From Clostridia bacterium (GTDB lineage: Bacteria; Bacillota; Clostridia; TANB77; CAG-508), in the NCBI GenBank assembly GCA_022792395.1, contig JAAWAX010000005.1:6112-70111 (forward strand): a DNA stretch of 64,000 nt. The letters are read 5' to 3'. Position 1 is the stretch's first letter; every line of letters starts with the position of its first letter. Below, piece by piece: positions 9,894 to 13,727 of this stretch. A model generated the notes under the pieces. That model searched no databases and was not told where the DNA came from. It saw nothing but the letters and a program-made list of their open reading frames with translations. Made by a program: the position numbers and the translations under genes.

Positions 9894-9995
9894 AATTGTT
9901 ATTTGGCTAGGTGCACAAGTTTTCAATTTATGAGGCGTACGAGGGTACGTTGATTAAATTGAAAGCGAAGTGCAACAACGCCAAATGATAATTAT
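9894..9995. repeat. Family-B structured element (copy 1), purF/purN divergent spacer
   Basis: Shares conserved blocks with 13625..13727: AATTGTTATTTGGCTAGG, ATGAGGCGTAC-N4-GTACGTTGATT and AACAACGCCAAATGATAATTAT. The middle helix has a different sequence but still pairs. Confidence 0.7.
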
Positions 9996-10070
9996 CTTTT
10001 AAACTACTCATTATTGACTTTATAGTACATTCGTGCTAAACTACACTTATATCAAATTAGGAGGTAATAT

Positions 10071-10643
10071 ATGTATCATTTAGTTGTATTTGCTTCTGGC
10101 AACGGCTCTACTCTACAAGCCATTATTGATAGTATTCATCGACACGAACTAGAAGCACAAATTGATTTAGTGGTTTCTGATAATCCAAATGCCTATGCTC
10201 TAACAAGAGCAAAAGATAATCAAATAGAAACCTATACCATTCAAAACAAAAATTTCGAATCAAGAGATATAGAATTGTCACAAGTACTTTCAAACTATTC
10301 CATTGACCTTATTGTACTTGCTGGCTATTTAAAAATGATTGGTCCAAACTTACTCGAAAAATATACCATTATCAATACACATCCTTCTTTGCTTCCTAAA
10401 TATGGTGGAAAAGGTATGCATGGTATGCATGTTCATGAAGCTGTTGTTACAGCACAAGAAAAATATAGTGGTGCTACCATTCATTTCGTAAATCAAGAAT
10501 ATGATAAAGGCAATATTATTAGCCAAACAAAAGTTGAAGTTCTTCCTAGTGATACAGCTGAAACTCTGTCTCAAAAAGTACAATCTGCTGAGAAAATTCA
10601 GTTAATCAAAGTTCTAAATCAATTAATCCATCATGAAATCTAA
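10071..10643 (+). CDS. purN: GAR formyltransferase PurN
   Basis: 190 aa. VFASGNGS, NTHPSLLP and HFV..E.D.G motifs. A GGAGG ribosome-binding site lies upstream. Confidence 0.85.
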   Translation: MYHLVVFASGNGSTLQAIIDSIHRHELEAQIDLVVSDNPNAYALTRAKDNQIETYTIQNKNFESRDIELSQVLSNYSIDLIVLAGYLKMIGPNLLEKYTIINTHPSLLPKYGGKGMHGMHVHEAVVTAQEKYSGATIHFVNQEYDKGNIISQTKVEVLPSDTAETLSQKVQSAEKIQLIKVLNQLIHHEI

Positions 10644-10825
10644 TCATAATTTAAGCAAAACGATACTTTCATAAGTTTCTATATTATTTTCAAGTTACCC
10701 TTAAATAATTTCTACTTTAAGATATTTTCCATAAAAATTAATATAGAAACTTATTTGCATTATAATTTTTTATTATAATTAGCACTCTCTAAACTCATAT
10801 TTACATACTTTGCTTTTCTATTATT

Positions 10826-12124
10826 TTAGTGTTCGTAAATTTCTCCTATGTCTTTTCTATAATCCAATTTGGTATCAATATTATTTTCCATGGCAGTATA
10901 TGCTTTTTGTTTTGCCTCTTCTAAAGTATTTCCACTGGTATGAATTGCAAATAATCTTGAAGTTCCTACTGATACATAACGATTATCTTCTACTTGCTTG
11001 GTACTTGCAAAATAAATTTTAGCATCTTTTTCTAAAATCGCTTTTGTATTCAAATTAAATTCACAAGGTTCCGCTTTTTTTATCGCATAATCAGGGCTTA
11101 CTACATAAACCGTAAAAGTATAATTATTTTTAAATTTACAATTTTCAGTTGATAATTTCTGCTCCCAAATATTTTCCATTACTTCACTAAATGGTGTTTC
11201 TAATGAATTTAATACATTAATTGCTTCTGGATCACCAAATCTTGCATTAAATTCAATAAATTTGATGCCTTGTTTACATTTGAAAAATCCACCATAGATA
11301 ACTCCTGTAAACTCTAAATTATCTTTATTAACATATTGAATCGTATTTTGAATTAATTTGCTACAAACATCTACATCTTTTTGCTCTAAAAATGGTAATA
11401 ATCCATTTTCAAAACTTAAACATCCCATACCACCAGTTCCTGGTCCTTTATCTTCATCAAATCGATAGGGATAATCAAAAGTAGTTGGTGTTACAACAAT
11501 ATTTTTTCCATCTGTTAGTGCCATTACTGTAAATTCTCTGCCTTCTACTTTGTCTTGTACAATTACTTTTCCATCCGATTCTAGGCATTCTTTGGCATAT
11601 TCAAAACCTTCTTGTTTTCCTTTAAAATGAATGCCTCCTACTTTAACACCTTTTCCTCCTGTTAATCCTTCTGGTTTTACAACAAAGCTGTCATCTTCAT
11701 AATTTTTCATAACTTCTTCTAATTTTTCCAATGTTGTTATGCTTTCATTTTTAATTATCATCTCTGGTGCTAACTTTTCAACTATTTCTAAAGCATATGT
11801 CTTACTCCATTCTACTTTAGCTCCTTTAGAAGTTGGTCCAAATGTTTTTAATCCAAGTTCTCTCGCTAAATCAATCAATCCTTCTTGCAATAAATTATCT
11901 TGACTAACCACACATATTTCTATGTTTTCTTCTTGCACAAATTTCTTGACAAGTTCTTTATCAAATGGGTCTCCTATTAGATATTTTCCATTTGATTTTT
12001 CTACTTCTTGTACAACAGATGGATTGGCATAAGGTAGAATAGCATATAATTCAAATCCTTTTCCTATTTGTTCTGCTAATACCGCTTCACGCCCACCATT
12101 TCCTAGTAATAAACATTTTTTCAT
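10826..12124 (-). CDS. purD: Phosphoribosylamine-glycine ligase PurD
   Basis: 432 aa. N-terminal LLLGNGGREAV, ATP-grasp core, EFNARFGDPE. Confidence 0.85.
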   Translation of the reverse strand: MKKCLLLGNGGREAVLAEQIGKGFELYAILPYANPSVVQEVEKSNGKYLIGDPFDKELVKKFVQEENIEICVVSQDNLLQEGLIDLARELGLKTFGPTSKGAKVEWSKTYALEIVEKLAPEMIIKNESITTLEKLEEVMKNYEDDSFVVKPEGLTGGKGVKVGGIHFKGKQEGFEYAKECLESDGKVIVQDKVEGREFTVMALTDGKNIVVTPTTFDYPYRFDEDKGPGTGGMGCLSFENGLLPFLEQKDVDVCSKLIQNTIQYVNKDNLEFTGVIYGGFFKCKQGIKFIEFNARFGDPEAINVLNSLETPFSEVMENIWEQKLSTENCKFKNNYTFTVYVVSPDYAIKKAEPCEFNLNTKAILEKDAKIYFASTKQVEDNRYVSVGTSRLFAIHTSGNTLEEAKQKAYTAMENNIDTKLDYRKDIGEIYEH

Positions 12125-12144
12125 TTTTTCTCTCCTTTTAAAAT

Positions 12145-13582
12145 CTATACATTTACCTCTACATCTTTATCATTTATTAAATCCTTATATTTCTCTAAAA
12201 TAGGATTCACTCTTTCTTCTACAAAATCTTCTACTTGTTTTGGAGCTCTACCACATAAATGGTCTGGATTTAAGGCTTGCATGATTTCTTCTTTCGTTAA
12301 TCCAAAAGTTCTATCTGCTGCTATTCTATCTACTAAATCATTTGGCTTTCCTAATTCTTTTACTTGCTTTCCAGCTTCCATTGAATAAATTCTAATTTTT
12401 TCATGTAATTCTTGTCTATCTCCACCCTTTAATACTGCATTCATTAAAATTTCTTCTGTTGCCATAAAAGGTAGTTCTTGCATCATGTTAGTTTTTATTA
12501 CATTTTCATAAACCACGATATTTTTAGAAATATTAGCATATAAAATTAATATCGCATCTACTGCTAAAAAGCTTTCTGGTACACAAATTCTTTTGTTTGC
12601 TGAATCATCTAATGTTCTTTCTAACCATTGGGTTGCTGCCGTTATGCTAGGATCCATTGTTAATGTCATAACATGTCTTGCTAAAGAATTAATTCTTTCA
12701 CTTCTCATCGGATTTCTTTTATAAGCCATAGCAGATGAACCAATTTGTCCTTTTTCAAAAGGTTCTTCTAATTCTTTTTCATGTTGTAATAATCTCATGT
12801 CATTAGCAAATTTTGAACAACTTTGGGCAATTTGTGATAATATGCTTAAAACTCTTGTGTCTAATTTTCTAGTATAAGTTTGTCCGAGATACCGAATATA
12901 CTTTTTCAAATCCCATTTTTTCAGCTATTTTACCATCAATTTGTTTTACTTTTTCTTCCTCTTTAAATAGTTTCATAAAACTTTCTTGTGTTCCAGTTGT
13001 TCCTTTACAACCTAATAATTTCATATGACTTTGTACAAATTCTAGTTCTTCTAAATCTTCTAACAAATCTTGTAACCATAAAGTTGCTCTTTTTCCAACA
13101 GTTGTTAATTGTGCTGGTTGAAAATGAGTGTATCCTAAACAAGTTACTGCTTTGTTTTCTAAAGCAAATTTCTTTAAATTATGAATTACTACAATTAATT
13201 TTTGTTTCACAATTTGCAATGCTTGTGTCATTAAAATTACATCCGTATTGTCTGTCACATAGCATGAAGTTGCTCCTAAATGAATAATTGGTTTTGCATT
13301 TGGACATTTTAATCCAAACTCATATACATGTGCCATAACATCATGTCTACATTCTTTTTCTCTTTTTCTTACAATATCATAGTCGATATTATTTACATTT
13401 TCTTTCATTTCTTTGATTTGTTCTTCTGTAATGTCAATTCCTAGTTCTTTTTCTGTTTCAGCAAGTGCTATCCATAGTTTTCTCCATGTTGAGTATTTAC
13501 TGTTATTAGACCATATTTGGTTCATTTCTTCACTTGCATATCTTCCAGAAAGCGGTGTTACATAAATATTGTTTTCCATCAT
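12145..13582 (-). CDS. purB: Adenylosuccinate lyase PurB (one CGG +1 site at 12884-12886)
   Basis: Track ORFs 12869..13582 and 12145..12909 join as ..EKVYSVS-G-QTYTRKLD.. when the C of the in-frame CGG is skipped. GSSAMAYKRNP signature present. Length minus 1 nt gives 479 codons. Confidence 0.85.
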
Positions 13583-13624
13583 TTTTCTTCCTCTCTAATT
13601 TTTTCATTTTGTTGTTTGGAAAAG

Positions 13625-13727
13625 AATTGTTATTTGGCTAGGCAAACTTTATTTGAAAGCAATGAGGCGTACTGTTGTACGTTGATTTGATTTCAAATAA
13701 AGTTTAACAACGCCAAATGATAATTAT
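13625..13727. repeat. Family-B structured element (copy 2), purL-purB spacer
   Basis: Same orientation and conserved blocks as 9894..9995. Its middle helix is a perfect 15-bp AAACTTTATTTGAAA/TTTCAAATAAAGTTT pairing. Confidence 0.7.

Follow-up and report, generated by a model that had tools for sequence, protein, structure and literature searches.

A family of hairpin-forming interspersed elements in operon spacers of uncultured gut Clostridia

Small structured repeats and related hairpins in bacteria

ERIC (about 127 bp) and the Correia or nemis elements of Neisseria are imperfect palindromes of about 100-150 bp that give long hairpins, as do the elements described here. ERIC and Correia copies number tens to hundreds and lie in transcribed spacers between genes, those inside operons among them, and their presence or absence varies between related genomes; the present family resembles them in both respects. 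Correia elements are associated with a TA duplication. Their 26-bp terminal repeats are well conserved, whereas the termini of the present family (the outer stem, P0) vary and covary and its conserved part is subterminal and internal. The family further differs from ERIC and Correia in lacking a consistent duplication, in an orientation that is about 95% fixed, in its Clostridia host and in the absence of sequence similarity. When co-transcribed, Correia elements undergo RNase III cleavage, and ERIC has an orientation-dependent RNase E effect (PMC10969869; PMC3049150).

The pneumococcal BOX, RUP and SPRITE elements are likewise small structured interspersed repeats, and they too inhabit a Firmicute. 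Several such families share a genome and cluster in the same spacers, with no link to the functional class of the flanking genes; their orientation merely mirrors the coding bias (61-63%), with enrichment downstream of convergent genes (PMC3049150). The present family, by contrast, lies between co-directional genes with a much stronger bias, 40:2 for one orientation. A second hairpin family is also present in the 64-kb stretch analysed here, a coexistence that parallels BOX, RUP and SPRITE.

Another group comprises the REP/REPIN sequences, which RAYT (Y1 HUH) transposases mobilise, and palindrome-associated elements derived from IS200/IS605. As in the present family, structure rather than termini is conserved and there is no target duplication; the hairpins are recognised as single strands and so carry a strand-specific constraint, a constraint that the present family shows too. 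In REPIN doublets, hairpins about 100 nt long keep their pairing through compensatory change. Membership in REP/REPIN is not supported by the family alignments, which contain neither a GTAG-type head nor a paired short-REP substructure.

Two further systems place hairpins next to genes. In Clostridium, operons subject to selective RNA processing and stabilisation have stem-loops between their cistrons, a placement that this family shares (PMC4423207, PMC10311766). Those stem-loops differ from the family in being locus-specific, on the sense strand and without a repeated sequence family. Integron attC sites follow directly on ORFs as imperfect palindromes of 57-141 bp, in which conserved boxes surround a paired centre of variable sequence, a plan that the elements share. 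The folding strand of attC is likewise antisense, to the cassette ORFs. An attC identity was nevertheless rejected, since the R''/R' cores (RYYYAAC / GTTRRRY) are absent from the conserved blocks and the neighbours are housekeeping operons rather than cassettes.

Two copies in a purine gene cluster

The window, meaning the whole 64-kb stretch of DNA that was analysed, holds two + strand copies of the element, copy A and copy B (Table 1). They lie in a pur cluster in which purF (-) and purN (+) are divergent and purL and purB are both on the - strand; four hairpin insertions occur in this cluster in all. A sequence-only reading had described two look-alike copies in the same + strand orientation, one between purF and purN and one between purL and purB, and both the copies and the gene assignments proved correct. 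The blocks AATTGTTATTTGGCTAGG, ATGAGGCGTAC-N4-GTACGTTGATT and AACAACGCCAAATGATAATTAT each occur exactly twice in the 64 kb, against a chance expectation of 0.00-0.18. There is no third copy: with filters off, the next covariance-model match in the whole window scores only 24 bits. Both elements reach farther out than that reading had placed them, their outer stem running to the limits in Table 1.

Table 1. Features of the two window copies and of the adjoining purN promoter region
Feature	Position	Strand	Remark
Copy A, complete, from P0 to P0' of the outer stem	9883..10005	+	covariance model, 128 bits
Copy A, 5' strand of conserved stem P1 (AATTGTTATTTGGC) and 5' side of internal loop (TAGG)	9894..9911	+	
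Copy A, 5' strands of variable helices P2 and P3	9912..9929	+	partner 9956-9973
Copy A, apical module: AUGA, stem P4, GAUU	9930..9955	+	P4 is GGCGUAC/GUACGUU, with 2 G.U pairs and a variable 4-nt loop
Copy A, 3' side of internal loop (AACAAC) and 3' strand of P1 (GCCAAATGATAATT)	9974..9993	+	
purN promoter-like site TTGACT-17-TAAACT, between copy A and purN	10014..10042	+	kept in sister species without the element
Copy B, whole element	13614..13736	+	covariance model, 125 bits
Copy B, 5' strand of P1 and TAGG	13625..13642	+	
Copy B, 5' strands of P2 and P3	13643..13661	+	sequence unrelated to copy A; partner 13688-13705
Copy B, apical module (AUGA-P4-GAUU)	13662..13687	+	
Copy B, AACAAC and 3' strand of P1	13706..13725	+	

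On the + strand the copies fold as RNA at -45.9 and -43.2 kcal/mol (z about -9), compared with -28.1 and -31.7 kcal/mol on the - strand, and P1 of copy A contains two G.U wobbles present on the + strand only. The folds also bear out the proposal that the middle helix, though different in sequence, is paired in both copies. Copy A is flanked by the conserved purN promoter on one side and the purF ribosome-binding site on the other; the promoter-like site is context and lies outside the element. The last base of copy B touches the purL stop codon (CTA, 13737-13739, + strand). At the other end, the purB start codon (13582) lies 32 nt from the element's first base. Both copies are found in 10/10 conspecific assemblies, which differ there by one SNP, and no presence/absence polymorphism of the hairpin family was seen among these ten.

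The sequence-only reading had interpreted the element as a riboswitch, attenuator or protein-binding leader of the purine pathway, controlling purF and purB. In its favour, on the - strand both window copies precede a pur gene start (purF, purB) by 32-36 nt. However, the fold energies and G.U pairs favour the opposite strand, which is antisense to the purF and purB mRNAs, and purL and purB appear to be broken in the window species. No pur gene adjoins any of the roughly 60 copies outside the window. In a tblastn search with the window pur proteins, no match adjoined any of the 16 copies from a genome scan; the sole match near them was weak, formyltransferase-like and about 5.8 kb from one copy. 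Rather than recurring with one pathway, the copies are found beside secY, adk, map, por, rps/rpl, frr, pheS, metK and clpX, among other genes.

Conservation at orthologous positions tells against a purine leader as well. Seven pur loci of sister species (L103-L109), with PurF 83-94% identical and the pur gene order of the window, do not contain the element in their pur spacers (7/7), including the regions upstream of purF and purB. The purL|purB spacer measures 23-54 nt in four of these loci as against 154 nt in the window; L103, L104 and L107 have extra small genes between purL and purB, and in L109 the spacer is 132 nt long and is occupied by another hairpin repeat. As for the purN|purF spacer, that of L103, L105, L106 and L107 is short and empty, that of L104 spans 176 nt with no recognised repeat, and those of L108 and L109 hold unrelated long hairpins. 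Orthologous pur spacers therefore differ in occupancy, being filled in the window species and empty or taken by other hairpins in L103-L109, where the empty sites are too diverged from the window to define an exact insertion junction. Since the element is missing from the equivalent spacers of close relatives, it is dispensable there. The window elements are not purine-responsive RNA, and a purine leader merits almost no credence. The distribution found, many copies with no gene-context bias, is the one that the sequence-only reading had itself associated with a REP/MITE-like repeat and named as refuting its proposal.

Structure, strand and placement of the family

Each family element is one long hairpin of about 125-130 nt composed of five helices. 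The outer stem, P0, is variable in sequence, A-rich on its 5' side and U-rich on its 3' side. P1 is a 14-bp stem whose sequence is conserved within the main subfamily. An internal loop (5' UAGG opposite 3' RACAACG, with an invariant G-C pair inside), the variable stems P2 and P3, and the apical stem P4, which carries GA/GA on its flanks and a variable 4-5-nt loop, complete the structure. Covariation is found in all five helices. Across 46 copies, 94.3% of cells are paired, compared with 35-46% in slid controls, and compensatory changes affect 27/48 pairs, or 36/48 in a set of 30 diverse copies; the earlier description of a structured element with conserved loops and junctions and covarying stems is thus upheld.

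Of the four bases of UAGG, the AG is invariant in 30/30 diverse members and the remaining two reach at least 90% conservation. An AC and the G of RACAACG and the in-loop G-C pair are likewise invariant across very divergent members, in which the P1 sequence is altered on both arms and pairing is retained. The strongest conservation is subterminal and internal (P1 and the loops), not terminal. Together with the covariation of all stems, this pattern resembles that of a functional structured nucleic acid rather than that of an ordinary DDE-type MITE. A double-stranded DNA operator, with TTATTTGGC ... GCCAAATGA as inverted half-sites for a dimeric regulator, would suit the inverted-repeat arms and their high conservation in the main subfamily. 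An operator is nonetheless very improbable, because the half-sites lie about 75-90 bp apart, P1 of divergent members changes on both arms with pairing kept, the differences between the arms are transitions yielding G.T on one strand only, and the gene context is not that of a regulon.

The + strand is the better-supported folding strand, in agreement with the sequence-only reading. Mean fold energy across the family is -50.2 kcal/mol on the + strand and -36.7 kcal/mol on the - strand, and covariance-model scores are 125-142 bits as against 40-55 on the reverse. G.U cells number 218 and A.C cells 28 on the + strand, an excess that rests on a few inherited positions (by column only 20 vs 13). 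These strand-specific G.U pairs and fold energies, together with a + strand that terminates in a hairpin and then AUUAUUUUUC, would also suit a family of independent small RNA genes whose + strand transcripts are antisense to the operons. Small RNA genes are an improbable explanation, however: no -35/-10 signal at any fixed distance upstream on the + strand was found in 43 copies, and four divergent members lie in the opposite orientation. What lies upstream is instead the reverse complement of the start codon and ribosome-binding site of the neighbouring gene, with variable spacing.

The searches gathered about 64 distinct copies from some 0.86 Mb of DNA, drawn from MAGs and metagenomes of related Clostridia. 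A genome scan gave 16 members in about 12 MAGs and a metagenome scan about 42, to which covariance models added further, divergent copies, with up to four in 9.7 kb (locus L085). In the low-coverage sample ERZ777011, copies lie on at least 11 contigs, and two MAGs have three copy-bearing contigs each. The hosts form a clade of uncultured gut Clostridia of low GC content (about 28%). Occupied spacers include secY|adk, adk|map, porD|porA, rpsG|fusA and rplW|rplB, and the proteins encoded on the flanks include Adk, SecY, PorA, PorD, PheS, MetK, RRF, ClpX, L23 and S7, among others.

The copies occupy short spacers between co-directional genes, mostly within operons. They start at or beside the stop codon of one gene and typically end 10-60 nt before the next start codon, at most about 170 nt. 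Relative to both flanking genes, the better-folding, G.U-bearing strand is antisense in 40 cases and sense in 2 (about 95% fixed). The two strands have similar U-tails (4.7 vs 4.4 U in 9 nt), so the polarity of termination does not explain this 40:2 orientation. An intrinsic (Rho-independent) terminator was rejected on the same grounds of similar U-tails, and also because the copies separate closely spaced co-directional genes and the stronger hairpin is antisense. Near-fixed orientation combined with conserved loops is unusual for repeats of this kind.

A probable interspersed repeat, or possible operon punctuation

The elements are probably multi-copy, hairpin-forming interspersed repeats, non-coding and non-autonomous, that are REP/ERIC/MITE-like in the broad sense, akin to REP/REPIN, ERIC, Correia and BOX/RUP elements, and not purine RNA. 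Many dispersed copies at unrelated intergenic sites are what defines interspersed repeats broadly, and they are found here. New copies would arise by copying into new spacers. This step most likely passes through a single-stranded intermediate of the folded strand, because pairing and conserved loops are kept on one strand only, and a putative trans-acting enzyme would recognise that intermediate. DNA is a more likely intermediate than RNA, as no promoter of the element's own was seen. On this reading, the purF leader or promoter region received copy A and the space between purL and purB copy B, in each case after the window species had split from the relatives with PurF 83-94% identical. Once in place, the element would be read through in operon mRNA in its weaker-folding orientation, and an imperfect long hairpin between cistrons could change mRNA processing or stability.

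Several findings tell against this reading, among them the internal rather than terminal conservation, the 40:2 orientation and the lack of polymorphism within the species. The DNA searched (fragments of at most 21 kb per genome) also yielded no parent IS, no full-length element and no mobilising enzyme such as a RAYT or TnpA. Searching with just the 5' block turned up short elements and chance matches and nothing else, and a tblastn search of 0.97 Mb with an IS200-type TnpA query, a weak probe, gave no match. Under an IS200/IS605-type single-strand mechanism (IS608), the folded strand is expected on the sense side of co-directional genes, whereas that of the family lies on the opposite, antisense side. 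The elements lack hallmarks of a DDE-type MITE. The very ends are not conserved, the outermost 10-12 bp (P0) varying and covarying around a subterminal conserved block, and there is no target duplication of fixed length or sequence. No consistent target-site duplication is seen at the ends of the outer stem, which read AA..TT in 7 copies, TA..TA in 6, AG..CT in 6, TT..AA in 5 and many other combinations elsewhere.

An unlikely alternative holds that the elements are host-functional operon punctuation. The host would retain them between cistrons as cis-acting RNA structures, or structured DNA strands, of a generic kind, and their spread by copying would be secondary. Such punctuation could take the form of a protein-binding site, a processing or stability module for RNase III or RNase Y, or a barrier to antisense transcription. 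It would account for helices that all covary around an internal loop invariant across very divergent members, and for strict placement, in which a stop codon touches the stem, the following start codon is typically 10-60 nt away and the orientation ratio is 40:2. It also fits the presence of copies in essential, highly expressed operons (secY-adk-map, S10, str, rplJL and por) and the filling of the same spacer in several species (porD|porA in four, secY|adk in two). Clostridia do possess intercistronic stem-loops that set operon stoichiometry (PMC4423207, PMC10311766). Punctuation is opposed by the absence of the element from the same spacers in close relatives, by the unrelated hairpin families that occupy those spacers in sister species, and by a better-folding strand that is antisense to the mRNA, has no visible promoter and ends in U-tails without clear polarity.

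More tentatively still, the family may be more than selfish DNA. It would then be a previously undescribed class of strand-specifically folded elements, defined by the UAGG / RACAACG loop and the GA-flanked apical stem and read by a putative dedicated protein, with the fixed antisense placement at intra-operon stop codons pointing to a mechanism coupled to transcription or translation, or to a host function. The reader would be either an RNA-binding factor or a new recombinase or nuclease specific for hairpins of single-strand DNA, and the host function would be operon punctuation or antisense insulation in low-GC Clostridia.

The sequence-only reading had recognised no named riboswitch, and the family matches none of those in Rfam. 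The window copies have no match in Rfam 15 at gathering thresholds, nor does the interval 9700-14000 at E<=10, and at E<=0.1 nothing overlaps the copies in seven loci with at least 15 of them. No match was found in the phage and plasmid records searched, and no description in the literature searched. The comparison removes a false lead, as there is no new purine riboswitch at the window pur genes. The family departs from textbook MITEs in its covarying stems, its two conserved loops and its lack of terminal conservation and target duplication, as well as in its stop-codon sites inside essential operons and its one-sided orientation. Should a protein partner exist, the elements would give tractable access to a new mobilisation or RNA-processing system that recognises hairpins. 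Repeats of this kind, even when purely selfish, remodel operon spacers and also give rise to false-positive 'structured RNA' calls when genomes are scanned comparatively.

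A covarying hairpin and its probably constrained strand

The two window copies of family B are structured elements on the + strand, where the sequence-only reading had placed them. Three shared blocks each occur exactly twice in the 64-kb window (chance expectation 0.00-0.18), and the stretches between these blocks are unrelated in sequence in copies A and B, yet paired in both. Folded as single strands, the + strands reach -45.9 and -43.2 kcal/mol (z about -9), and their reverse complements -28.1 and -31.7 kcal/mol. The position assigned earlier stands, but the length was too short, as an A-rich/U-rich outer stem enlarges each element to the extent listed in the table. 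A covariance-model search of the window returned these two copies only (128 and 125 bits; runner-up 24 bits). Pfam bore out the gene assignments around both. Copy B begins right behind the purL stop codon and accounts for the extra purL/purB spacer DNA of the window, and copy A lies between the purN promoter and the purF ribosome-binding site.

Features in the window and in related Clostridia contigs (L-numbers)
Feature	Sequence	Position	Strand	Remark
Family B, copy A	window	9883-10005	+
Family B, copy B	window	13614-13736	+
purF	window	8427-9848	-	Pfam
purN	window	10071-10643	+	Pfam
purD	window	10826-12124	-	Pfam
purB, two overlapping frames	window	12145-12909 and 12869-13582	-	Pfam
purB frameshift split	window	12869-12909	-
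purL, two pieces	window	13737-15218 and 15357-17465	-	Pfam
purL interruption	window	15219-15356	-	several in-frame stop codons
purM	window	17627-18664	-	Pfam
purF/DUF3221-gene spacer	window	8119-8426		199-bp polymorphism
Second hairpin family	window	6005-6140 and 17478-17620	+
AT-rich hairpin	window	35490-35610
glmS ribozyme	window	27513-27668	+	Rfam, 90.9 bits
tRNA gene	window	24835-24908	-	Rfam
Family B, sense copies	L049	7498-7629 and 8183-8314	-	rplA-rplJ-rplL operon
L10 leader	L049	8383-8519		Rfam
Family B, opposed pair	L053	3135-3263 / 3368-3498	- / +
Family B, opposed pair	L058	3963-4092 / 4286-4417	- / +
Extra-hairpin variant	L073	255-407
Extra-hairpin variant	L090	2541-2694	-
MITE-like element	L109	5866-5984 and 1396-1527
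MITE-like element	L107	3269-3397

All members of the family form a single long hairpin. The outer stem P0 (about 10-12 bp) is followed by a one-base mismatch and by the 14-bp stem P1, whose arms in the main subfamily read AAUUGUUAUUUGGC and GCCAAAUGRYRAUU. Then come an internal loop (5' UAGG vs 3' RACAACG) containing an invariant G-C pair, P2 (4 bp), P3 (8-15 bp), a small loop that usually has GA on both sides, and the 7-bp apical stem P4 with a variable loop of 4-5 nt. Across 46 copies, standard pairs occupy 94.3% of cells, compared with 35-46% in controls that shift the 3' partners by 1-3 columns, and 27 of the 48 pairs show changes on both sides. Compensatory changes reach 36 of 48 pairs in a set of 30 deliberately diverse members, in which even P1 is altered on both arms and invariance or near-invariance is confined to the loop nucleotides and a single G-C pair. 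The combination of conserved junctions and covarying stems described for the window thus extends to the whole family, where its support exceeds anything that a pair of copies could provide. Part of the compensatory change could stem from template switching between the two arms (bioRxiv 10.1101/2021.04.15.439925). Such switching would, however, wipe out persistent G.T positions and asymmetric loops, and both are still present.

Some members depart from this plan. In L073 and L090 an additional hairpin, about 55 nt long (GTGAAATTTAT-TTC-ATAAATTTCTCAC), is inserted into the element where the 3' side of its internal loop lies; the insertion point is the same at these two different loci, rpsG|fusA and porD|porA. 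Nested or truncated members are found in L049, L059 and L080.

The + strand, defined as the one reading AGAATTGTTATTTGGCTAGG, gives the better fold in almost all of the 51 unique copies (mean -50.2 vs -36.7 kcal/mol), and covariance models score 125-142 bits on it and 40-55 on the reverse. Paired cells contain 218 G.U vs 28 A.C combinations (114 vs 28 without P1), although this excess rests on few inherited positions in P1, P4 and P0, and amounts to 20 vs 13 when counted per alignment column. Mutational bias is rejected as its source by reasoning: the C-to-T excess of leading or non-template strands predicts the opposite direction, A.C and not G.U on the + strand. Because known strand-asymmetric deamination would favor A.C there, the + strand is probably the one under constraint, and the earlier strand call was largely right.

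Host species, family size and sister pur loci

An identical PurF is encoded on at least 22 contigs from gut metagenomes and metagenome-assembled genomes (MAGs), for instance GCA_949444445.1, with ten places shown; on these contigs the gene order is unchanged and the sporulation genes YabP and YqfD are present. Given these genes and the origin of the contigs, the host is an uncultured, spore-forming member of the Clostridia, with roughly 28% GC. Both copies occur in 10 of 10 conspecific assemblies, the sole difference being one SNP in the apical stem.

The same assemblies share apparent breaks in two pur genes. The frameshift that splits purB is common to all conspecific assemblies covering it (six of the ten places shown), as is the purL interruption (two covering). 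Among seven sister-species pur loci (L103-L109), purL is intact in L103, L104, L107 and L108 (1241-1242 aa), and purB is intact in L104, L105, L106 and L109 (477 aa) and split also in L103, L107 and L108. These breaks could reflect pseudogenization, recoding or recurrent assembly error. A 199-bp presence/absence polymorphism also distinguishes conspecific assemblies in the spacer between purF and the DUF3221 gene; the segment, which is not a hairpin and has a TATAAT-like motif, is found in the window and L001 and is missing from L002, L004 and L005.

Family B extends well beyond this species. A genome scan, covering one genome for each species and requiring no more than the two P1 arms, yielded 16 true members from about 12 Clostridia MAGs; all other matches arose by chance in unrelated taxa. 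A second scan, of metagenomes and with only the 5' block as query, added about 42 further members, and two covariance models recovered additional, more divergent copies at the same loci, which brings the tally to about 64 different copies over 0.86 Mb. Copies can be closely packed: L085 holds four within 9.7 kb, several loci have two, and 11 contigs of one low-coverage sample carry copies. In L053 and L058, a copy with divergent P1 stands beside a classical copy in opposed orientation, 105-195 nt apart, reminiscent of clustered or composite arrangements in other repeat families. Rfam 15 gave no overlap with the window copies at gathering scores, nor at E<=10 over 9700-14000, and none with any copy in seven further loci at gathering and permissive thresholds. 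Viral contigs contained no match to the exact 5' block, and two looser loop-based patterns gave chance matches without the flanking stem; blastn against plasmid and phage collections found no match. We found no description of this repeat family in the literature searched.

The sister species carry no family members in their pur loci. These seven loci were traced through PurF homologs (94, 93, 92, 90, 88, 85 and 83% identity), and all have the order purM-purL-purB-purD-purN(reversed)-purF, with one or two extra small genes between purL and purB in L103, L104 and L107 and one between purB and purD in L107 and L109. The purL|purB spacer, 154 nt in the window, measures 23-54 nt in L105, L106 and L108, as well as in L104 just before purB; in L109 it is 132 nt and filled by a different hairpin repeat. 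The purN promoter (TTGACT-17-TAAACT) is kept in all seven purN|purF spacers. These spacers are short and repeat-free in L103, L105, L106 and L107, contain no recognized repeat in L104 (176 nt), and hold yet another AT-rich hairpin in L108. In L109 the spacer harbors an unrelated hairpin whose long perfect terminal repeats contain GGGACAGG, with further copies in the L109 purL|purB spacer and behind purB in L107. The window pur cluster itself has a second hairpin family, with two copies, in the purE|purC and purM|purL spacers. The independent presence of different hairpin repeats in the same short spacers is behavior expected of mobile, dispensable elements and not of a conserved regulator.

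Several of these neighbors merit description in their own right. The second family, probably the family A of the sequence-only reading, has the core ACTCCCA..CACAGTCTGT-loop-ACAGACTGT..TGGTCCCCC within long AT-rich outer stems of differing sequence; one window copy is sense and the other antisense to its flanking genes, and an additional copy occurs in another MAG (L031). A MITE of classical appearance occurs in L109 and L107, with perfect terminal repeats (GAGACAAGAGGGACAGGTCTTTTTTGTCTC...) some 30-35 bp long around an unstructured center; it sits in the same pur spacers as family B in the window species. A long, near-perfect AT-rich hairpin elsewhere in the window (about 25 bp, -34.7 kcal/mol, z -8) also has an unstructured center, and its sequence is not related to that of family A or B. 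The only two Rfam matches at gathering level in the window are a glmS ribozyme and a tRNA gene.

Gene context and orientation

No pur gene lies beside the 16 genome-scan copies, as judged by tblastn with the window pur proteins; the sole match, weak and formyltransferase-like, was about 5.8 kb away from the L012 copy. Neighbors of the remaining copies, identified from translations with Pfam confirmation for ten, likewise include no pur genes. The occupied spacers include secY|adk (two species), adk|map, porD|porA (four species), rpsG|fusA and rplW|rplB, and other neighbors are frr, pheS, metK, clpX, murB, pyrD, carB, ackA, holB and lepB, among others. On one side, the P0 end touches or overlaps a gene's stop codon (for most copies the gap is -17 to +6 nt), and the next start codon typically follows 10-60 nt (up to about 170) past the opposite end.

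In 40 cases the two flanking genes both run antisense to the folded strand, and in two cases both run sense. Eight mixed cases, among them window copy A, fall at divergent or convergent junctions. The four sense exceptions, including two half-cases, are without exception divergent-P1 members: two lie in the L049 ribosomal protein operon, one wedged between the L10 leader and the rplJ start codon and the other between rplJ and rplL, and two stand back-to-back with a classical copy in L053 and L058. A polar terminator, strong on one strand and leaky on the other, does not account for this orientation, since the U-tails are nearly equal (4.7 vs 4.4 U in 9 nt) and the hairpins are very stable on both strands (-40.5 vs -29.0 kcal/mol). 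The + strand shows no -35/-10-like signal at a fixed distance upstream, and no positional signal of an internal or upstream promoter.

Orientation might instead follow replication. On the element strand, 51 of 53 loci have negative GC skew, a bias confounded with the coding strand. In the two exceptions, the por operons of L023 and L090, local skew and most coding are reversed and the element still follows its flanking genes, which weakly favors a gene-linked over a replication-linked rule, although the two loci amount in effect to one insertion site.

A structured interspersed repeat

Family B is a multi-copy, dispersed, lineage-restricted and structure-conserving element found in operons at gene ends, nearly always in one orientation. 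The sequence-only reading had proposed a purine-linked riboswitch, attenuator or leader, and had named many copies without gene-context bias as the mark of a REP/MITE-like repeat. The latter is what was found, and the purine-regulatory reading is wrong: the element has no pathway association and is missing from the orthologous sites of close relatives. Taken together, these features place it among the structured interspersed repeats (REP/REPIN, ERIC, Correia, BOX/RUP and similar).

The family works like known structured intergenic repeats, but it fits neither the REP definition nor the strict definition of a MITE, which calls for terminal conservation and target duplication. No target duplication was seen and the termini are unconserved; a TA duplication that was plausible in the first 18 copies proved inconsistent across 47. 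The metagenome scan with the 5' block revealed no parent insertion sequence or transposase, and an IS200 TnpA probe (an approximate query sequence) gave no match in 0.97 Mb. Pneumococcal repeats show an orientation bias of 61-63% and prefer convergent gene ends (PMC3049150), so the 40:2 ratio of family B is far stronger.

Because pairing survives full turnover of the stems, two loops are conserved, and termini and target sites lack the usual signatures, the selected step may be one in which a trans-acting protein recognizes the element as a folded single strand, as HUH-type systems do (RAYT, IS200/IS605), rather than DDE cut-and-paste. The single-stranded intermediate would more likely be DNA than RNA, as the element is without its own promoter. 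For IS608, a lagging-strand-template rule predicts on which side the folded strand should lie, and family B has it on the other. This misfit, the orientation, and an enzyme and parent element that were not found leave some room for a host-functional or otherwise new mechanism, which we consider unlikely.

In the host, the repeat would be co-transcribed with its operon in the weaker-folding orientation, and, to judge from Correia and ERIC elements (PMC10969869), a long imperfect hairpin between cistrons might alter processing or stability. That family B is a new repeat family is in itself unremarkable; its unusual traits are covariation in all helices, conserved loops, placement at stop codons and a near-fixed orientation inside essential operons.
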